A stretch of DNA of 64,000 nucleotides from Candidatus Woesearchaeota archaeon (GTDB lineage: Archaea > Nanobdellota > Nanobdellia > Woesearchaeales > JACQSR01). The notes under the pieces are model-generated. The model made no database searches and had not been told where the DNA came from. It was given only the letters and a program-made list of their open reading frames with translations. Shown here piece after piece: positions 16,936-62,361 of this stretch. The stretch spans positions 14,980-78,979 of the forward strand of contig JACQSR010000014.1 in assembly GCA_016211215.1 (NCBI GenBank), read 5' to 3'. Every line of letters starts with the position of its first letter. Within the stretch, counting starts at the first letter, position 1. The translations under genes were made by a program, and so were the position numbers.

Positions 16936-18030
16936 TTATGGTAGCCAGCTCTTCTGGTCAGCAAGCTTTTTGGGAAGATAATCCGATATGACAAAATTAA
17001 GCCCGTGCTTCGCCAATGCCTGCTGCTCCGCCCTTACCTTCATCTTTGCCATCTGCTCCAAGGCTTTCTGCCACGGCTTGTAATGCCTGATGAAAGGGTC
17101 GTTTTTGATTAAGTCCTTTATTTTTTTAATGTCAACCTCTTTTAACGGGTGGGTTGGAAGCTGGTAATCAACAATATCCTGGGGAGTAATGCCTATAAAC
17201 TGAGCCTGGGGCACGCAGAAATACTCGTTAATGTGCGCTGCATTTCCCGAACCGGCTTTTAGTGTCCTATAAATGGACCCGAAGCCGTAAGGATCGCCAT
17301 CAGTAAAAACATAAACTGGAATCTTTTTCGTGTCAGCAAGCCTTCTTATGAATCTCCTGCACGCCCTTGTGGGAACTCCGCCCATGGATATCAATATGCA
17401 GTTTGCCTTCTTCCAGTAATTGTGCTTCACAAGCCTCTGGAACATACCTGCAGTCTCAATTGCAAGAATGAATTTTGCATCTGTTTCAAACTTCAGATGT
17501 TCAACTGAAATCGGGATTGAATACGCCCCGGAGCCGAATTTGGTGCAGTCTATCCTAAGCTCCTTTTCTGTATCGCGGTCTTTGTCTATTACAATAAGCT
17601 TTCCCGCTATTTCACCGCCTTTTTCCTCGGGAATGAAACCAATCTGCTCTCGGTTGACCATCATCATTGCCTCTATGTCGTCCATAACTGCGTCTGAATC
17701 CGGCTGTTCGGAGAATCTTGCAGGGCCCCAGTTTTTTGAGATGTAGTAAGCCTCCCTTTTTGAGGCAATGTCATCAGTTTCAACAAGATTTTTTGAGAGG
17801 GACATCATCTTGAGAGTTTGCGCAAATGTCTTGACTGTTCCAGCTGTAAGGGTGCGCTCCTTGGTCTTGCCGAGAAGCTCGAAGTATCCTTCCTTTTCAT
17901 CGTACTTGACGTTGTTCAGGGCACGAAGTGGCATCCTAAGCTCAGGCTGCTTTTTCTTCAGGATTGAGTTGTAGACATTGCCCGCTATGTTCTTTATTTC
18001 ACCGAGCACATCATTCGCTTTCTTCGTCAT
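16936..18030 (-). CDS. top6A: DNA topoisomerase VI subunit A
   Basis: SKREAYY catalytic Tyr region, [23 protein letters not shown]. Confidence 0.97.
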
Positions 18031-39025: not shown

Positions 39026-40609
39026 TCACTTGAAGCCTCCTGAAAGCTCTATTGCCTTCATGCACGCTTGAGCCTTCCTTTCGGTTTCCTGGAACTCGCT
39101 TTCCGGAATGCTGTCAAACACTATTCCTGCGCCGGCCCTTATGTATGCCTTTTTGTTTTTCAGGCGCATGGAGCGTATTATGATTGCAGAATCAAACTCT
39201 CCCTGGGGGGTTAAGTAGCCAACTGCGCCGCCGTAAAATCCGCGCTTGTTTTTTTCCGCAAGCCTTATCAGCTTTGTTGCCATCACTTTAGGGCAGCCTG
39301 TCAAAGTGCCCATGTTCATGGAAGCGAGGTATGCGTGCAGCGCGTCAAGGTTTTCTTTCATTTCCCCCCTTACATTTGAGACCAAATGCTGGACGTGGGA
39401 ATACTTTTCCACAAAGAATGGTTTGTCAACGTACCTTGTGCCGGGCTTGGAAACCCTTGCCACGTCGTTTCTTGCCAAATCAACAAGCATGGTGTGCTCC
39501 GCAAGCTCCTTCTGGTCTGTTTTCAGCTCAATTTCGTACCTCGAATCAAGGTCTTCGTCAATCTTGTCCTTGTTAAGGCCTCTTGGTTTTGTACCCGCAA
39601 TAGGCCGTATCTGAACTAAATTGCCCGATACCTTGATGGACATTTCCGGTGATGCTCCCAAGAGAACGCCTTCGCCACCGTTTATGTAAAACATGTAGGG
39701 CGATGGGTTTAACCGCCTTAAGTTTTTGTAAATATCCAGGGGCTCTGCGTTGTAATTTGTGATTATGGTTCTTGATGGAACAACCTGCACAACATCGCCG
39801 TTGATAATGTGCTCCTTCATCTTAAGGACAATCCTCTTGAATTCTTCCTCTGACGTGTCTGTTTCAATAATCTGCTTTACCGGCTTGAATTTCGGAACTT
39901 TTGGCGGCTGGGATTCGATTGCCTTTTTGTAATACTGCAGCGTTTTTTGCAGCCTCTGGTGCGTTGCGCTCCTGGATTCGTGGGTTATCACCGCGTTGAT
40001 TACAATGTATGTCTTGCCTTCCATGTGGTTTGTGACAAAGAGGTTGTCGAGATAGTAAAACTCGTAATCCGGGTCGTTCAACGGGTTGTTTGTGTTTTTT
40101 GGCAGGTCCTCAAACTGGTCTATGAAATCAAATGAAAATGCACCGAAAAGGCCGCATGTCGGGAACTTTGATTCCGGAGCCTTGAACGCATTGCTGATGG
40201 TGCGCAATATGTCTATGTGGGTTTTCAGCTTAAGGCGCTGGTCTTCGCTCACCATCTTTCTTTTAGGGGTTAGCCTTCCGGTTATTGCCCCCTTCTTGAA
40301 CACCGCTGAATCGCAGAACTTGAAGTCCTTCTTTATCAGGTGCAGCATCTGGAGTCCCTGCTGGTTTAATGCCCTAATCTGGAACTGCTCTCCCCTGCCC
40401 GTTATATGAAGAGATGGATTTGCCGAGCCTATGCTTTTTTCGCCATAGCGCTCAACGTAGTCTGCAGACTCGAATAACAGCGAGTTTTTCCTTCTCCCAT
40501 AGTCCGAAAGCTTGGAAAACAGCCCTACAGCATCCGTATTTGGGACTTCCTCAACTATTGGAATTACGCTTCCCGGCTTCGCTTTTTTTAGCGTTTCAAT
40601 GTCTATCAT
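39026..40609 (-). CDS. trpE: anthranilate synthase component I
   Basis: LFES, NPSPYM, EHTMLVDLARND, AGAGIV; start set at ATG 40609. Confidence 0.96.
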   Translation of the reverse strand: MIDIETLKKAKPGSVIPIVEEVPNTDAVGLFSKLSDYGRRKNSLLFESADYVERYGEKSIGSANPSLHITGRGEQFQIRALNQQGLQMLHLIKKDFKFCDSAVFKKGAITGRLTPKRKMVSEDQRLKLKTHIDILRTISNAFKAPESKFPTCGLFGAFSFDFIDQFEDLPKNTNNPLNDPDYEFYYLDNLFVTNHMEGKTYIVINAVITHESRSATHQRLQKTLQYYKKAIESQPPKVPKFKPVKQIIETDTSEEEFKRIVLKMKEHIINGDVVQVVPSRTIITNYNAEPLDIYKNLRRLNPSPYMFYINGGEGVLLGASPEMSIKVSGNLVQIRPIAGTKPRGLNKDKIDEDLDSRYEIELKTDQKELAEHTMLVDLARNDVARVSKPGTRYVDKPFFVEKYSHVQHLVSNVRGEMKENLDALHAYLASMNMGTLTGCPKVMATKLIRLAEKNKRGFYGGAVGYLTPQGEFDSAIIIRSMRLKNKKAYIRAGAGIVFDSIPESEFQETERKAQACMKAIELSGGFK

Positions 40610-40922
40610 TTTTCTGAAATGCAATTATCGTGAAATTTATTAAGGTTTGGTAAAAAATTGCTGAAATTAGATGAAAATCGGGAGATAAGGTTAAATATGC
40701 CTTTTTCCAAGGTTCTAAGACCATTTAATCGTTTTCTAACTGTCCATAACACAAAGAAGTTTTATCCAGAGCCAAAAGTAGTAAATCTGCTTCCCTTACA
40801 TGAAAAGAGATAGAATAAGCGGAGTTTATAAAGTTCTACTGGAAAGGTGGGATTTTTAATTAACTACTCTGGAATAGTTAATTACCGAAAAGATTATAAA
40901 CCCTTACGCTTTAAATGGGGTA

Positions 40923-51008: not shown

Positions 51009-52376
51009 CTAAAGGTAATCCCTCACATCCGCAACCTTTCCCTCGCACGCCGCGATTGCCACCATGGCAGGGCTCATTAACAGGGTTCTTCCAGTCGGGC
51101 TTCCCTGACGGCCCTTGAAATTCCTGTTTGATGTTGACGCGCAAACTTCATCTCCAATTAATTTGTCAGGGTTCATTGCAAGGCACATACTGCATCCGGC
51201 ATTGCGCCATTGGAATCCTGATTTTTTGAAAATTTCATCAAGGCCTTCCGATTCTGCCTGCATCCTGACCTGCTCAGAGCCGGGAACAACCAATGCACGG
51301 ACTCCATTGTGAACCTTCCTTCCATTGACAATTTTAGCGGCTTCCCTCAAGTCTGAAATCCTTGAATTTGTGCAGGAGCCTATGAATGCAACGTTGATTT
51401 TTTTTCCTTTTATTTGTTCTCCCTTCCTGAATTTCATGTACTGCAACGCCTCTTCATCCGCATCATCCGGTATTTTTTCATTTACAGATATGCTCTGGCC
51501 CGGGTTTATTCCATAAGTAACTATAGGCTCTATTTTGCTTCCGTCCAACTTAATTTCATCATCATATCCTGCGTTCCTGTCAGATTTTACCGAATCCCAG
51601 AATTTTACTGCTTTGCTGAAGTTTTTCGGGGCAAACTCCCTGCCTTTCAGGTAGTCGTATGTTGTTTCGTCAGGGTTCACATATCCCATTCTTGCTCCGC
51701 CTTCAATTGACATATTGCAGACGGTCATTCTCTCTTCCATTGAGAAATTGTCCAAGACATTTCCGGCGTATTCGTATGCATACCCTATTCCGCCCTTGAC
51801 GCCTAAATTATTGATTATTTTCAGTATGACATCCTTTGCGTAAACGCCTTTTTGCAGTTTTCCGCTTACATTAATCCTTCTGAGCTTCGGCTTTGACGCT
51901 GCAAGGCATCCCGTTGCAAGTATGTCGCGTATCTGCGAAGTTCCGACGCCCATCGCTATTGCTCCAAACGCCCCGTGAGTTGATGTGTGGCTGTCTCCGC
52001 ATGCTATTGTCATGCCGGGCTGTGTTAAACCCAATTCGGGGCCTATTATGTGGACAATTCCGTGCTTTTTGCTGCCCAACCCGTAAAACCGGATTTTGCT
52101 GCTTTTTGTGTTTTCCTCCAGCGCCTTCAGCATTTCCTCCGCAAGCCTGTCCCTGAACGGCCTTGACAGAATGTCGGTCGGAATTATGTGGTCGGCAGTT
52201 GCAGCGCAGTTTTCAGGGAACATCACCTTAAGATTTTTCTCCCTCAGCACGGAGAATGCCTGCGGGCTCGTTACCTCATGTATCAGGTGCAATCCTATGA
52301 AAATCTGGTCTAACCCGGACTTTAAAGTTGCGACCTTGTGCATTTTCCAGACTTTGTCTAACAGACTTTCTCCCAT
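51009..52376 (-). CDS. leuC: 3-isopropylmalate dehydratase large subunit
   Basis: [39 protein letters not shown]; start set at MGESLL. Confidence 0.97.
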
Positions 52377-52415
52377 GAATTTTGATAACATTGGGCTATT
52401 TTTAAAGGTAAGGAT

Positions 52416-53300
52416 TTAGATTAGCAAAAGTTGGCGCTGCTCTTTAGCCGCCTTCAAGCCCTTTCTGCCAGCAGGAATCAGGGTAAATCCTCCCCTGATA
52501 ATATTGTCTCCCAACATCATCTGCCTAATATGATCGTGCAGACCCTGCTGGATTTGTCTGTAAATCTCTGCTTTCCTTGAGCTGTCCCCTTCCTCTGGAG
52601 GATTAAATCTCAAGAAATCCCACAAATAGCCCTGAACCAGCGGCCTCTCATCCGGAATTCCTTTTGAGGATGGAACCTTACTGAAACGGCATACTTCTAT
52701 GCTCCGAGAACTAGGATTATAATACAAGATAAAGGAACCTTGAAAGGGTATAACAGTTTCCCATTCCGCCCGCGTCAGTATCTTGTATTTTTCCCTCTCG
52801 TAATCCCCTAATTCTTGATATAGCTTTTGGGCCCTCCCGAAGGCTTGTCTTGTTGTTGCTGCATTAAATATCCCTTTTATTTCCTCAATTTCTTCCGCTG
52901 TCACACTTTTATCGCCAATCATGTATGCGACTATATCCTCTACCGTTTCCTTTATTGTTCCGAGCAGACGCGCCTGCCTCAAGAAGGGCCCCTCATACCT
53001 TTTCTTTGCACGGTCGTAGTCTATCGCCCTGGGAAAAATAAATCCAACTCTATTGCCGGGACTGGCTCTGTCAATCCTTGACTGCAGATAACTTTGTAAA
53101 CCGGTATTTTCAATCGTTGAAACGTCTGTAATCACATCAAGCGAGAAGTGGGTTTTCTTTAAGCCAGAGCGGATTCCGTTCCCTTCAAATATATGGGAGT
53201 AATCAGTTTGAGAATCACCCATATTAGCGAGCATTAGATTATTTTTTACATATGCAATCATTGAATGCACTACTTGCTCATTGGTTAACATCTCTGCCAT
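52416..53300 (-). CDS. hypothetical protein
   Basis: 294-aa ORF, no recognised motif. Confidence 0.55.
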   Translation of the reverse strand: MAEMLTNEQVVHSMIAYVKNNLMLANMGDSQTDYSHIFEGNGIRSGLKKTHFSLDVITDVSTIENTGLQSYLQSRIDRASPGNRVGFIFPRAIDYDRAKKRYEGPFLRQARLLGTIKETVEDIVAYMIGDKSVTAEEIEEIKGIFNAATTRQAFGRAQKLYQELGDYEREKYKILTRAEWETVIPFQGSFILYYNPSSRSIEVCRFSKVPSSKGIPDERPLVQGYLWDFLRFNPPEEGDSSRKAEIYRQIQQGLHDHIRQMMLGDNIIRGGFTLIPAGRKGLKAAKEQRQLLLI

Positions 53301-57369: not shown

Positions 57370-58329
57370 ATGAAAAGGATTATGTGCCTGATTCTGGTGC
57401 TTCTTGTGCTTGCAGGCTGCGCGAAGGAGCAGAAATCGAACCTTCGGCTGCCCTCTGAGAGTTTCGTGAGGCAGAACATAATGCCTTCCCCTCCTTTCGA
57501 AAACCTGCCGCAGGCAAAAGAGAGCGATTACGACATAAATGATATTCTTTTTGACGACATAATTCCCGGGATTGGCGCCGGAGACAAATTTGGCGAAGGC
57601 GCATGGAACAACAGGGTGCTTATTTCTGAATCCACGAATTCAAAGGTATGGAGCAAGAGGGCAAAGATTATAGCGGAGCAGGCGTCATATCCCGAGGCTT
57701 TTGTTGATAATGAAGGCAGGCTCAGGGTTTATTTTTCAGACTCCAAAAACAAGGGGACAAGCGTTGCAATATGGCACAACAGCAAGTGGATTTACAAGCA
57801 CGTCGGAATAGAGGAGGGTGTAAGCGACACCAGCATTACAGCTTCTGGCGACGGCAATTACAGGATGTACTACCAGATTGGAAACAGCATATTCAGCGCA
57901 AAATCAAGGAACGGGGTTTACTTTGAGAGGGAAACAGGGGTTAGATTGAGCGGAAACGACATAGGGGGATTTGATGTTTTTAAAATTCCGTCCGGATGGG
58001 AAATTATTGTTTCAGAAGGAGGCGAATTCTTCGCCTCAGATTCGCAGGACGGCCTTGCATTCGGAAACCTGGAAGACATTAGTATACATGGATTTGGAGG
58101 GGATGTATTAAGCGAAGGCGACAGCTACCGGCTGTTTTACGAGGACGATTACGCAAAGCAGCCTGCAGTATTCTCTGCCTCCTCAAAAGACGGGATTTCG
58201 TGGAGCAGGGATTCGGGAGTGAGGCTTATTGGGGGCTCGAAGCTCGACAAGAAGGGAGTATTCGGGCCGTCAGTTGCCAAGCTGGATGAAAAATCCTACA
58301 GGATGGCATATTATTCCAGGATAAATTAG
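57370..58329 (+). CDS. lipoprotein with beta-propeller glycosyl hydrolase-like repeats
   Basis: LAGC lipobox; repeated YRMYY/YRLFY...SAxSxDG.xW/F motifs. Confidence 0.65.
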   Translation: MKRIMCLILVLLVLAGCAKEQKSNLRLPSESFVRQNIMPSPPFENLPQAKESDYDINDILFDDIIPGIGAGDKFGEGAWNNRVLISESTNSKVWSKRAKIIAEQASYPEAFVDNEGRLRVYFSDSKNKGTSVAIWHNSKWIYKHVGIEEGVSDTSITASGDGNYRMYYQIGNSIFSAKSRNGVYFERETGVRLSGNDIGGFDVFKIPSGWEIIVSEGGEFFASDSQDGLAFGNLEDISIHGFGGDVLSEGDSYRLFYEDDYAKQPAVFSASSKDGISWSRDSGVRLIGGSKLDKKGVFGPSVAKLDEKSYRMAYYSRIN

Positions 58330-58817
58330 CTTTTTTTCGGGGATTCCCTTGAGATTCCCGTAACGCCTGTCCTGCTTACGTCCAGAATTCCGAAAGGAGA
58401 CATAAGCTCGAGAAAGGTGTCTATCTTCTGGGGTTCGCCCATTATCTCCAAAGTTATGGTCTTTGGCGTTATGTCCACTATCTTGTTCTTGTAGACATTT
58501 GCATATTTTATTATGTCTTCCTTCCTTTTTCTTCCGTTAATACTTATTTTTGCAAGGCACAACTCCCTTATCACGGAATCATCGGGCTTAAGCTCAAATA
58601 CGCTGATAACGTCTATGAGCTTGCCCACCTGCTTTTCCACCTGCTCCATTGTTTTATCGTCGCCAATTGCAGTGATGATTATCTTTGAAGCCCCCCGGGA
58701 ATTGGTTTTTCCAACTGTAATTGTATCTATGTTATAGCCGCGCCTTGCAAACAAGCCGGCAACGCGCGTCATCACGCCTGGCGCGTCATTTACAAGTATG
58801 CAGATTGTGTGCCTCAT
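58326..58817 (-). CDS. ilvN: acetolactate synthase small subunit
   Basis: PGVMTRVAGLFARRGYNID, RELCL, SRTG; start at ATG 58817. Confidence 0.95.
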   Translation of the reverse strand: MRHTICILVNDAPGVMTRVAGLFARRGYNIDTITVGKTNSRGASKIIITAIGDDKTMEQVEKQVGKLIDVISVFELKPDDSVIRELCLAKISINGRKRKEDIIKYANVYKNKIVDITPKTITLEIMGEPQKIDTFLELMSPFGILDVSRTGVTGISRESPKKS

Positions 58818-60616
58818 TTTAAACCCCGGGCGGACCTTGACTTCAGGATGTCCTGCCACGTCTGCTTGAATATGACATTTCCGCCGATGATTTCCTTCAG
58901 CGAACCGCCGGCAGGCAGCATGGGCCATATGTTCTTTTCCTTTTCTACCATCACGTCAATCACCGTGGTCTCGCCGCTTTTGTAGGCTGTCCTAAACGCC
59001 TCTGCAAGCTCGGATTTTCTGGTGACAGTTATTCCCGGCAGCCTGTATGCTTCAGCCATTTTCTCAAAGCTTGGGTTGTCCGTAAAGTGCACGGTCGAGT
59101 ATCTTTTGTTGTTGAAAGTTTCAAGCCACTGGCGCACCATGCCCAAATATTGGTTGTTCATGATTACCGGAATTACCTTGATGTTTTCTTCCTTGCACAC
59201 CGCAAGCTCCTGGGAAGTCATCTGGAAGCTTCCGTCACCGTCAATGTCTATAACCTCTACTGAAGGCCTGCCGACCTTTGCGCCTATCGCAGCAGGAAAT
59301 CCAAAGCCCATGGTGCCTGCACCGCCGGAGGAAATCCATGTTCTCGGCAAAGTCCTTGACATGTAAAGCTGGGCAAACATCTGGTGCTGCCCAACTCCCG
59401 TTGCTACAATATCTTTTGGCTTTATCATCCTCGAGATTGTCTGGATGGAAAATATCTGGGTAAGCCCTTCCGTCTTTATGTCCCTTTCATGGTGGCTTTC
59501 AACTATTGCCTTGACATCTTTTATCCTCCTGTTCCATTCGGAATGCTTATGATGCCTCTTCGCTCCGGCATTTCTGACTGCTTTCACGAGCTGAACAAGG
59601 CACTGCTTTGCATCGCCCGTTATGGCAACTTCCGCTTCAACGTTTTTTCCTATCTCTGCAGGGTCTATGTCTATATGGATTATCTTTTTTCCTTCCTGGA
59701 ATGACTTTGTGTCTCCGGTAATCCTGTCGGAGAACCTGCATCCAACCGCTATAAGCAAATCAGAGTTGATTACTGCGTAGTTTGCGTGCTCCTCGCCGTG
59801 CATGCCCAAAACTCCCAAACTCAATGGGTGTGTTTCTGGAAAAGCGCCTTTGCCCATCAGGGTTGTTGCAATGGGGCAGTTTACGGTTTCAGCGAGCTGC
59901 CTTACCTGATGCGAGGCATTTGAGATTATTACTCCGCCGCCGGAAATTATCAGCGGCCGCTCGGCTTCCATAATGAGCTCGGCTGCGTCCAGAACCTGCT
60001 GCCTGCCGGGCTGAGGGACTGGGTGAAGTGAGTATGCAAACTTTCTTGCAGAGTTTTTGGAGGCCGTTTTTGTCTGAATATCTTTTGGAACGTCAATGTA
60101 AACGGGACCGGGCCTGCCTTCCGTCGAGATTTTGTATGCCCTTGTCAGGGTTTCCGCTATGTCATCAACATGGCGAATCTGGAAATTGTGCTTTGTGATG
60201 GGCATTGTTACGCCTATCATGTCAGTTTCCTGAAATGCGTCGTTCCCTATAAGAAACGTTGGAACCTGGCCGGAGATTGCAATTATGGGTGTTGAATCCA
60301 TGTAAGCATCCGCAATGCCAGTAACCAGGTTGCATGCCCCGGGACCTGAAGTTGAAATGCAAATTCCGGGCTTGCCGGTAACCCTTGCATATCCCTCTGC
60401 AGCATGGACTGCGCCCTGCTCGTGGCGCATCAGTATGTTCCTTATCCTTCCCTTGTAGTCAAAGACAGCGTCGTAGAATGGTATTATTGCGCCACCGGTG
60501 ATTCCAAATAGCGTGTTGACGCCAAGCTTCACAAGCGTTTCCGTCATGACATATTTGCCAATAGCCCTGTCCTTGGAAGTTATTTTTCTTGACTGCTGCA
60601 TTACCGGAGTTACCAT
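58814..60616 (-). CDS. ilvB: acetolactate synthase large subunit
   Basis: RHEQGAVH, TSGPG, GVGQHQM, GDGSFQM...NNQYLGMVRQW. Confidence 0.97.
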   Translation of the reverse strand: MVTPVMQQSRKITSKDRAIGKYVMTETLVKLGVNTLFGITGGAIIPFYDAVFDYKGRIRNILMRHEQGAVHAAEGYARVTGKPGICISTSGPGACNLVTGIADAYMDSTPIIAISGQVPTFLIGNDAFQETDMIGVTMPITKHNFQIRHVDDIAETLTRAYKISTEGRPGPVYIDVPKDIQTKTASKNSARKFAYSLHPVPQPGRQQVLDAAELIMEAERPLIISGGGVIISNASHQVRQLAETVNCPIATTLMGKGAFPETHPLSLGVLGMHGEEHANYAVINSDLLIAVGCRFSDRITGDTKSFQEGKKIIHIDIDPAEIGKNVEAEVAITGDAKQCLVQLVKAVRNAGAKRHHKHSEWNRRIKDVKAIVESHHERDIKTEGLTQIFSIQTISRMIKPKDIVATGVGQHQMFAQLYMSRTLPRTWISSGGAGTMGFGFPAAIGAKVGRPSVEVIDIDGDGSFQMTSQELAVCKEENIKVIPVIMNNQYLGMVRQWLETFNNKRYSTVHFTDNPSFEKMAEAYRLPGITVTRKSELAEAFRTAYKSGETTVIDVMVEKEKNIWPMLPAGGSLKEIIGGNVIFKQTWQDILKSRSARGLK

Positions 60617-60617
60617 T

Positions 60618-62174
60618 TTAATCTCCAACGTCCTCCGGCTTTATACTCTTTTTGGGTTTGTGCATCAGGGCATAGTTCACTCCCTTAATAAGCGCCTCAA
60701 CGGATGCCTTTACGATGTCTTCATTGACGGAGCCTGCCTTGAACTTCTCGCAGTTTTTGTTCTCGACTGTTATTGCAACGTCCGCAAGCGCGTCAGTTCC
60801 GCCGGTGATTGCCTTGAGATTGTAAGAGGTTAATTTCAATGAGGGATCCACCAGCTGCTTTATTGCCTTTGAGGCAGCATCAACAGGCCCAACTCCGGTT
60901 GCAGAACCCACCTTCTCCTTTCCGTCGACTTCAAGCTTTACCGTTGCTGTAGGGGTTACATTAGAGCCTGTCATGATTGCAAATTCCCTGAGCTTAACCT
61001 TCTGCTCCTGGCCTGACAATGCCTGGGTTGCATCATTGGCAATTGCGATTATGTCTGCCCGCTCAACTTCCTTCTGCTTGTCCGCCAAGTCTTTTATCCT
61101 CGAGGTTATTGCTGAAACCTGGACTTTTGAGAATTCATAGCCCATCTCCTTAAGGACATTTTCCACCGCGTGCTTTCCGGAATGCTTTCCTATGACTATG
61201 CCTTCCCCTTCCCACCCCACATCCGATGCGCGCATAATCTCATAGGTTTCACGCGCGCTTATCACGCCGTGCTGGTGGATTCCTGCCTCGTGGGCAAATG
61301 CGTTTTTTCCCACAATTGCCTTGTTGCGCTGGACTGAAATTCCAGTTAAGCTTGATACAAGCTTTGATGCGGCGAAAATCTCACCGATGTTTATGGACGT
61401 GAAAGCACCATTAAAGTAATTGGAGCGCACCCTGAGGTTCATGACGCATTCCTCAAGCGAAGCGTTTCCCGCGCGCTCACCCAATCCATTAATAGTGCAT
61501 TCTATCTGCGTGGCGCCTGCGTTGACTGCAGCCAATGAGTTTGCAACCGCATTTCCAAGGTCATTGTGGCAGTGGACCGAGATGGTTATCTTGCTGCTTT
61601 CGGGGACTTTCTTTCTCAGATACGTTATCCTTTGGGCAAACTCTTCAGGCTCTGCATATCCAACTGTATCGGGAATGTTTATGGTTGTTGCGCCTGCCTT
61701 TATTGCGGCGCTTACAACATCGCACATGTAGTTAATATCTGTCCGCGAAGCGTCTTCCGGGGAGAATTCCACGTCACGGGTGTATTTCTTTGCGCGCTTT
61801 ATGCCTTCAACGGCAATTTTGATTACCTCTTCCTTGGATATCCTCAGCTTCTTTTCCATGTGTATTTGGGAGGTTGCAATAAATACATGTATCCTCCTTT
61901 TCTTTGCAGGTTTTATTGCTTCCCAGGCGCGGTCTATATCGGCAGGCATGCACCTTGCCAAGGCGCAGATTACGGGGCCTTTCACCTTCTGGGCAATTAA
62001 TTTTACGGCATCAAAGTCGCCCTGCGATGCTATCGGGAATCCCGCCTCTATGACATCCACATTAAGCCTGGCAAGCTGCTTTGCAATGATTAGCTTTTCC
62101 CGTATGTTAAGCGATGCTCCCGGCGACTGCTCGCCGTCTCGCAATGTCGTGTCAAATATTTTTATTCTTCCCAT
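60618..62174 (-). CDS. leuA: 2-isopropylmalate synthase
   Basis: FDTTLRDGEQ, HCHNDLG, GERAGN, C-terminal regulatory domain GVGPVDA. Confidence 0.95.
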   Translation of the reverse strand: MGRIKIFDTTLRDGEQSPGASLNIREKLIIAKQLARLNVDVIEAGFPIASQGDFDAVKLIAQKVKGPVICALARCMPADIDRAWEAIKPAKKRRIHVFIATSQIHMEKKLRISKEEVIKIAVEGIKRAKKYTRDVEFSPEDASRTDINYMCDVVSAAIKAGATTINIPDTVGYAEPEEFAQRITYLRKKVPESSKITISVHCHNDLGNAVANSLAAVNAGATQIECTINGLGERAGNASLEECVMNLRVRSNYFNGAFTSINIGEIFAASKLVSSLTGISVQRNKAIVGKNAFAHEAGIHQHGVISARETYEIMRASDVGWEGEGIVIGKHSGKHAVENVLKEMGYEFSKVQVSAITSRIKDLADKQKEVERADIIAIANDATQALSGQEQKVKLREFAIMTGSNVTPTATVKLEVDGKEKVGSATGVGPVDAASKAIKQLVDPSLKLTSYNLKAITGGTDALADVAITVENKNCEKFKAGSVNEDIVKASVEALIKGVNYALMHKPKKSIKPEDVGD

Positions 62175-62178
62175 TTTG

Positions 62179-62264
62179 GTTCCTTTCCTGCGGCTGTAAA
62201 TCTAACGTTTGCAACGATGAACGCCTTGGTGTTTGGGCAAGGCTCACAACAGCAGCACAAGAAC
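62179..62264 (-). promoter_or_regulatory. putative translational attenuator hairpin sequestering the leuA RBS
   Basis: GUUCUUGUGCUGCUGUUGUGA (62264-62244) pairs at 18/21 positions with UUACAGCCGCAGGAAAGGAAC (62199-62179). Confidence 0.7.
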
Positions 62265-62309
62265 TGAGACTAGCAAAACTGCCAACACGGCTGAAGTGAT
62301 GTTAGTCAT
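62244..62309 (-). CDS. Leu/Val-rich leader peptide MTNITSAVLAVLLVSVLVLLL
   Basis: ATG about 24 nt after TTTAAAAA box; 13 of 21 codons Leu/Val/Ile; stop ~70 nt upstream of leuA. Confidence 0.75.
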   Translation of the reverse strand: MTNITSAVLAVLLVSVLVLLL

Positions 62310-62361
62310 TGCCGACTGCGGAGAGACACTTATTTTTAAAGATTGCGGTTTTTGTTATTTG

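Follow-up and report, generated by a model that had tools for sequence, protein, structure and literature searches.

Can an archaeon gauge its amino-acid supply through the translation of a leader peptide? The question is raised by a locus in a 64,000-nucleotide (nt) stretch of a Candidatus Woesearchaeota contig (JACQSR010000014.1, positions 14,980 to 78,979; hereafter the window, in which positions are counted from the first letter), where a short open reading frame (ORF) rich in leucine and valine codons lies upstream of leuA-ilvB-ilvN. Leader-peptide attenuation is a textbook bacterial mechanism, and to our knowledge no archaeal case is known; a full-text literature search (supplements not covered) found no archaeal leader-peptide attenuator, which agrees with the remark, in a sequence-only reading of this DNA, that there is no well-characterised archaeal example. 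We find, from the comparison of genomes, that this leader is very likely to be amino-acid-sensing. The reading that we favour, to which we assign a probability of roughly 45%, is that the leader peptide would sense Leu and Val supply via the speed of its own translation and would set the expression of leuA-ilvB-ilvN, with a translational read-out included.

A short ORF with a Leu/Val run precedes leuA

Three features define the leader:

62333..62340, minus strand: TATA-like promoter box, seen in the sequence, 23 nt from the leader ATG
62244..62309, minus strand: leader ORF of 21 codons plus TGA, from the sequence and the ORF list
62247..62288, minus strand: putative regulatory run, codons 8-21, 12 of 14 being Leu or Val, ending at the stop codon

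The leader ORF contains 7 Leu, 5 Val and 1 Ile among its 21 codons, and both this composition and the box ahead of it, which the sequence-only reading had pointed out, are present in the sequence. The first seven codons are unremarkable and the Leu/Val run starts after them; in an alignment of the genus, the changes within the run are synonymous or are swaps among Leu, Val and Ser.

The leader ORF is distinctive in its own genome. We counted 9,458 ATG ORFs with a length of 12-50 codons on the two strands of the 1.06-Mb genome, and no other of these short ORFs has at least 9 Leu, Val or Ile in the last 12 residues; in a separate scan for short ORFs behind a TATA box, the leader ORF ranked first. 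On these counts the leader ORF is not due to chance. The runner-up, an Ile/Thr/Ser-rich short ORF on contig C33, was considered as another leader and rejected, as no plausible gene follows it on the same strand; read from that strand only, it is probably antisense to a coding region.

A TATA-like box stands at the same spacing, as judged by eye, ahead of the leader ORF in nearly all relatives, and the box-to-ATG spacing of leuC, elsewhere in the window, is that of the leader ORF. From the TATA-to-ATG spacing we infer that the 5' end of the leader mRNA is probably at, or about 1 nt from, the leader ATG, such that translation would begin on a leaderless message.

The leader is conserved in relatives and in a second phylum

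We searched 401 genomes of the order, all of the genomes compared being metagenome bins, and found a leuA homologue at an E value of 1e-90 or better in 52 of them. These homologues fall into class I (at least 57% identity, 38 genomes) and class II (36-52% identity, 17 genomes). An upstream ATG ORF of 20-41 codons in which at least 9 of the 12 C-terminal residues are Leu, Val or Ile is found in 34 of the 38 class I loci, and with the limit relaxed to at least 7 of 12 in 37 of 38. Three of the class I genomes are unpublished (G209, G134 and G211), each of them with a positive locus; leaving them out gives 31/35 and 34/35, respectively. Class II loci have a leader in 15 of 17 cases, and one of the two negatives has just 265 nt of upstream sequence; five class II loci (L142, L144, L146, L149 and L150) were counted from longer sequence stretches. 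Duplicates were removed (L031, L047 and L040, equal to L115, L121 and L007), as were L112 and L176, which are near-identical to L111 and L175. L117 was removed for Ns in the spacer, and L038, L132, L024 and the non-leader loci L171, L178 and L023 stand outside the structure statistics given below. A search across the window's phylum found leuA only in genomes of the same order (16/401), and a metagenome scan for genus-level relatives yielded a top identity of 66%, with mostly bacterial matches.

The same leader type is found in a second DPANN phylum. In a search centred on the genome of a record labelled Candidatus Iainarchaeum (151 genomes, a leuA homologue in 36), 26 of the 30 loci examined have this type of leader together with a hairpin after its stop codon. 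Leu+Val tails accompany full-length leuA in this phylum, and Leu-only tails accompany a shorter homologue. The loci L317-L331 carry such Leu-only leaders ahead of short leuA homologues of about 400 amino acids, which match query residues 3-375 and are without the C-terminal domain.

Leader composition follows the downstream pathway

We measured composition over the last 12 leader residues for each class of downstream gene, with the following fractions:

Class I (leuA-ilvBN) leaders, n=36: Leu 0.58, Val 0.29, Ile 0.04
Class II (leuA without ilvBN) leaders, n=15: Leu 0.69, Val 0.01, Ala 0.08
Citramalate synthase leaders, n=30: Leu 0.06, Val 0.04, Ile 0.48

The presence of Val in the tails parallels the presence of ilvB. 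Behind class I leuA, ilvB is found in 28 of the 30 loci that are long enough, and the two loci where it is missing are also the two that have no Leu/Val leader; behind class II leuA, none of 16 loci has ilvB in the next 5 kb or so. Citramalate synthase is the entry of the pyruvate route to isoleucine. Contig C4, which is not part of the window, carries this genome's second synthase, identified as a citramalate synthase by TIGR00977 (549.7 bits against a cut-off of 450), and this gene has an Ile leader of its own (about 17430..17490 of that contig, minus strand; L019/L152), with 20 codons, a tail of Ala-Ile-Ile-Ile-stop, a TATA-like box and a post-stop hairpin, 62 nt upstream of the gene. Across the order, citramalate synthase (cimA) is found in 42 of the 401 genomes, and 29 of the 33 loci examined (26/30 without unpublished genomes) have a leader with at least 4 Ile in the last 10 residues.

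This amino-acid specificity is, among the sequence comparisons, the strongest evidence for a sensor leader. The view of the sequence-only reading that the ORF is a leader peptide is supported by the leuA upstream regions of class I relatives, by the sorting of composition by gene class and by the second phylum; comparison supports both the ORF and its specificity.

Codon use in the runs also differs from that of the adjacent genes: CTA is used at 0.21 versus 0.10, CTG at 0.21 versus 0.09 and GTT at 0.52 versus 0.33, while among Ile codons ATT is used at 0.54 versus 0.30 and ATA at 0.27 versus 0.56. With a share of 0.053, CTA is used less in this genome than any other Leu codon.

Could the ORF instead encode an independent small hydrophobic membrane peptide, or form a separate unit ended by the post-stop hairpin, with leuA read from its own promoter? 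The peptide does resemble a transmembrane helix, many relatives have a second TATA-like box ahead of leuA, and the hairpin could end a short transcript. A helix, however, would mix Leu, Ile, Val and Phe freely, whereas the tails sort by downstream pathway; moreover, the tie to these genes holds in two phyla, and in many cimA loci the 26-50 nt between leader stop and gene start leave no room for a promoter. We therefore consider this explanation highly unlikely.

A possible Trp counterpart lies near trpE (40609..39026). In 7 of 10 relatives a TATA-like box and, after it, an ORF of 8-15 codons with the core Ser-Asp-Cys-x-Trp lie some 200 nt ahead of trpE. The matching place in the window (40766..40801, minus strand) reads ATG-TAA followed by two in-frame TGG codons, and may be a decayed or remodelled Trp leader.

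A hairpin abuts the leader stop codon

The RNA within and just after the leader ORF contains three elements:

62223..62243, minus strand: hairpin H2, with a 6-base-pair stem, a 9-nt loop and its first paired base right after the stop codon, in the minimum-free-energy (MFE) fold
62268..62307, minus strand: possible hairpin H1 within the ORF, pairing early codons with the start of the run, weakly supported, present in the RNAalifold genus consensus
62211..62222, minus strand: degenerate counterpart of CCAUUGUUUCU, just 3' of H2

H2 is the structure for which comparison gives the clearest signal. In the 42-nt window after the stop codon, the mean z score relative to dinucleotide shuffles is -2.27 (n=43), with 26 of 43 loci below -2 and 35 of 43 below -1, and the first paired base lies 0-3 nt past the stop in 41 of 43 loci. 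In a subfamily of 11 sequences, 93.6% of the cells pair and two-sided changes are seen in 4 of 10 pairs; covariation scores 0.438, compared to 0.226 for shuffled alignments (0 of 500 shuffles reach the observed value) and to at most 0.193 for slid-partner controls. Subfamily alignments were used since RNAalifold on a mixed 16-sequence alignment yielded no structure. No other structure is shared by every lineage and gene class, and H2 keeps its place at the stop over distances of 26-386 nt from the start codon of the gene; both the hairpin and its position are thus supported by comparison. The sequence-only reading had placed this GCCUUG/CAAGGC hairpin among the fillers of a larger loop; by comparison, it alone among the structures is conserved everywhere. 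As a side observation, the H2 stem plus CCA resembles a minihelix end.

Since the regulatory run and H2 both abut the stop codon, a ribosome that sits at the end of the run, or on the stop codon itself, would have to exclude H2. The constancy of H2 argues for a switch that would act far from the start codon, and so points to transcription (a terminator or a pause hairpin) or to protection of the RNA, and the effect might be of either sign.

The remaining structures give weaker signals. The topology of H1 recurs in many relatives, with apparent matched changes, and its energies are no better than those of shuffles (mean z -0.89 and -0.66). Taken as one structure, the 156-nt sequence has no exceptional stability: its z score is -0.74, and 41 of 200 shuffles do as well.

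A classical four-segment attenuator, in which exclusive antiterminator and terminator hairpins are followed by a U-run, would fit a leader peptide with cognate codons ahead of a biosynthetic operon, but it makes demands that the RNA does not bear out. No alternative downstream partner of the H2 3' arm was found beyond chance (mean z +0.23 for 41 leuA loci and +0.12 for 27 cimA loci), so that the 3:4 pairing is missing and the bacterial four-segment scheme does not apply. The sequence-only reading was right that there is no U-tailed terminator, as no T-run follows in the window. Finally, an Rfam scan at E values up to 10 returned five matches (E 0.5-9.4), all far under the gathering scores and none a leader family. 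We regard a four-segment attenuator as extremely improbable.

Directly after H2, the motif CCAUUGUUUCU is found with at most 2 mismatches in 12 of 30 cimA loci (0.15 expected) and with at most 1 mismatch in 4 of 43 leuA loci (0.01 expected). It is common to leuA and cimA leaders, for example in L129, L154, L155, L158, L159 and L172. No pairing partner for CCAUUGUUUCU was found. The motif was considered as a general terminator and rejected: there are 14 exact matches in 5 genomes compared to 7 for a backwards control, and of these 14, 6 are leuA or cimA leaders and 8 are in other DNA without a leader.

Masking of the leuA ribosome-binding site as the favoured read-out

How might the position of a ribosome on the leader be read out? 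In the window, a predicted long-range stem joins the end of the ORF to the start region of leuA:

62179..62199, minus strand: 3' strand of the long-range stem, partner of 62264..62244, overlapping the leuA ribosome-binding site (RBS)
62181..62189, minus strand: purine-rich, Shine-Dalgarno (SD)-like tract of leuA

Between the last six codons plus the stop (62264..62244) and 62199..62179, 18 of 21 positions can pair, three of these as G-U. The purine tract lies within the 3' strand, whose end is 4 nt from the leuA ATG, and the stem is in the MFE fold; the sequence confirms the earlier claim on each of these points. The distance from the leader stop to the leuA ATG (62174) is 69 nt, and a second small hairpin lies between H2 and the purine tract, such that both of the small loop hairpins proposed earlier are found in the MFE fold.

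The stem is a feature of the genus. In its four genomes the duplex between tail and RBS has predicted energies of -23.2, -18.9, -23.2 and -13.2 kcal/mol, ranking 1, 2, 1 and 12 of 43 RBS windows; the stem recurs in three of the four, and RNAalifold recovers it next to the SD. Masking is the best-supported read-out here because H2 is nested in the putative RBS-masking stem in the window and in the genus, and we hold it, tentatively and at somewhat short of even odds, as the read-out in this window.

According to this reading, transcription would begin at or beside the leader ATG, and a ribosome would read seven ordinary codons and then the Leu/Val run up to the stop. If charged tRNA-Leu or tRNA-Val were scarce, the ribosome would linger on the last codons of the run, where it would cover 62264..62244, the 5' strand of the stem, and the foot of H2; the leuA RBS (62199..62179) would then be open and the operon on. 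If the supply were good, the ribosome would terminate and depart, H2 and the enclosing stem would fold, and initiation at leuA would be blocked.

A substantial set of results weighs against this reading. First, the duplex in the window is only moderately better than those with shuffled RBS windows (z -1.93). Second, a two-sided compensatory change is found in 0 of 27 predicted pairs of the genus consensus, H1 and H2 included. Third, the pairing does not extend to the order: mean duplex energies are -11.3 for cognate and -10.6 for non-cognate pairs (p 0.05), tail:RBS pairing gives mean z scores relative to shuffles of 0.0 (43 leuA loci) and -0.23 (30 cimA loci), and the Ile leader of this same genome is without a long stem (z +0.25). 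Fourth, modelled RBS accessibility hardly moves, with a mean unpaired fraction of 0.54 in the free RNA and 0.59 with a ribosome stalled on the run (n=42). Fifth, a run of 12 codons would put most stalls too far upstream to touch H2. Sixth, many relatives have a gap of 100-390 nt between leader and leuA and, some 33 nt ahead of the leuA ATG, the second TATA-like box. Seventh, the relatives share ancestry, so that the counts exceed the number of independent events. Order-wide anti-SD pairing was rejected on the duplex, shuffle and accessibility comparisons. The earlier proposal that an anti-SD helix is the working part is thus not established, and the case for this read-out is weaker than that for the sensor: the helix recurs in three of four genus genomes, is free of compensatory change and is absent as a rule elsewhere in the order.

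The last result of this kind comes from the second phylum, in which 14 of 26 loci have a run of at least four T residues no more than 15 nt past H2, compared to 75 of 477 control windows (16%); this arrangement looks like a terminator and less like a translational device. This bears on the possibility that the same sensor works on transcription: H2 with a U-rich stretch would be a pause or terminator element (OFF), and a ribosome on the last codons would prevent H2 and let the polymerase read on. The regulatory run always abuts the stop, H2 is shared at any distance from the start codon, and CCAUUGUUUCU stands behind H2 in many cimA loci, all of which would suit such a device. Nevertheless, the window itself has no T-run after H2, and the window's order shows no T enrichment there (7/34 versus 15%; cimA 1/28). 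Archaeal RNA polymerase, moreover, is taken to need no hairpin to terminate at oligo-T, and a fast ribosome in close coupling with the polymerase would sit over H2 too, an effect of the wrong sign unless release outpaces the pause. In this OFF form the explanation seems to us rather unlikely.

The opposite sign was also weighed. Here H2 would be an ON element like trp segment 2:3: a stall far up the run would let H2 fold, and a ribosome at the stop would melt it and expose the RNA behind to termination (oligo-U or factor-dependent) or to nuclease. A start of H2 at 0-3 nt past the stop is where a terminating ribosome would mask it, runs of 10-12 codons place most stalls beyond its reach, and the intra-ORF H1 could act as a synchronising pause hairpin. 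However, the 3' arm of H2 has no alternative downstream partner, H1 is no better than shuffles, and the T-run behind H2, where present, looks like an ordinary hairpin-plus-U terminator. We judge this version quite improbable.

A read-out via H2 on transcription, by termination or pausing just past the hairpin, is a possibility to which we give less credence than to masking, and some other read-out is unlikely. One locus bears on the choice: in G029 (L010/L205) leuA has a Leu-only leader at a distance of 386 nt upstream, and an ORF of about 95 codons intervenes; control by a leader of further genes besides the adjacent one would suit a transcriptional read-out. In the relatives with a second TATA-like box, leuA may be read from its own promoter as well as by read-through from the leader. 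That box stands at leaderless spacing, and a Shine-Dalgarno site is present as well, in L121, L123, L124, L128, L129, L131, L133, L138, L140 and L151.

A broader possibility, which we consider doubtful, is that at least two DPANN phyla run a regulon of leaderless leaders (Leu/Val, Leu, Ile and perhaps Trp) in which H2 would be the whole switch, a ribosome-gated, hairpin-dependent pause or termination of RNA polymerase. Such a regulon would be the first ribosome-mediated attenuation in Archaea, built unlike the bacterial one in that the regulatory codons adjoin the stop, and it would imply a coupling of transcription and translation that is put to regulatory use.

Genes of the locus and their host

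The genes behind the leader are the following:

60618..62174, minus strand: leuA, 2-isopropylmalate synthase, bacterial type (NF002086, 713.9 bits, cut-off 532; TIGR00973, 674.3 bits, cut-off 598.7)
58814..60628, minus strand: ilvB, acetolactate synthase large subunit, its start overlapping the end of leuA (TIGR00118, 713.5 bits, cut-off 538.35)
58326..58928, minus strand: ilvN, acetolactate synthase small subunit (NF008864, 189.6 bits, cut-off 119)

The true start of ilvN is probably near 58817, because the family match begins at residue 38. Further along the same strand, beyond an opposite-strand ORF, lie leuB and ilvC. That ORF, of 319 amino acids (57370..58329, plus strand), stands between ilvN and leuB, inside the branched-chain cluster, and is without a Pfam or NCBIfam match. 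A TATA-like box is found ahead of leuC (52391..51009, minus strand) in 52392..52430 of the minus strand, without a leader peptide. As read from the sequence, putative leader control within this gene cluster is limited to leuA-ilvBN.

The bacterial type of leuA (TIGR00973), with Neomarinimicrobiota as the nearest non-archaeal kin, suggests an old transfer between domains. In the nearest bacterial leuA loci, labelled Neomarinimicrobiota (62-66% identity), a leader is found in 0 of 7. The contig itself is archaeal, as the sequence-only reading had held, because it encodes topoisomerase VI A and B and an ABCE1-type protein. The host, an uncultured organism, is of the DPANN group and Woesearchaeota-like, the nearest named records bearing the labels Candidatus Woesearchaeota or Nanoarchaeota archaeon; its genome is 1.06 Mb in size and 84% complete. 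The seven sequencing runs listed for the stretch are all of DNA, from groundwater and from two studies.

Meaning and comparison with known systems

If the favoured reading is true, archaea would gauge metabolites by means of the ribosome in the act of translation. Natural examples number about 120 in the two DPANN phyla, with an internal control in the three or four leader types that match their pathways. The design is simple (a run, a stop and one hairpin) and is portable to reporters in Haloferax, Thermococcus or Methanococcus, which makes testable the gating of archaeal transcription or translation initiation by a leading ribosome. The leaders would also mark DPANN lineages that keep regulated branched-chain amino-acid synthesis, in contrast to the usual picture of auxotrophs.

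The closest parallels are bacterial. In the leader-peptide attenuators of Enterobacteria (leu, ilvBN, ilvGMEDA, trp and his), the position of the ribosome on the leader ORF decides downstream expression (PMC4007540). The leaders described here share with these a short ORF with codons for the end product and one matching leader per pathway (PMC4007540). They differ in being found in Archaea, in having a TATA promoter and an apparent leaderless start, and in a run that reaches the stop with a single hairpin after it; no terminator/antiterminator pair was detected here and no Rfam leader family matched.

The LEU element of Actinobacteria is similar in that codons of a Leu run form a base stem with the Shine-Dalgarno of leuA, with inner hairpins and no obvious terminator (PMC1262725), an arrangement that in our case is predicted at the level of the genus. 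That element was described as a pseudoknot in which mutations of the Leu codons left regulation unchanged, and a protein factor was favoured (Seliverstov et al. 2005, PMC1262725). In contrast to the LEU element, the base stem here is genus-limited and the leader is Leu+Val and class-specific, the sequence relation between the two being compared by the Rfam scan alone.

Two further systems share the apparent leaderless start. The mycobacterial polycysteine short ORFs (Canestrari et al., bioRxiv 10.1101/834739) are leaderless, as the leaders described here would be, and like these carry a run of one amino acid and occur at several loci for that amino acid; the mycobacterial ones are bacterial, use cysteine and were shown experimentally, while ours are archaeal, use Leu/Val, Leu or Ile and are drawn from genome comparison. 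Similarly, the predicted leaders of Deinococcus deserti (de Groot et al. 2014, PMC4007540) are translated from an mRNA that starts at the start codon, but those are bacterial and are predicted to work through terminators (PMC4007540). The principle is thus bacterial; the archaeal domain and the design with one hairpin at the stop codon are new.

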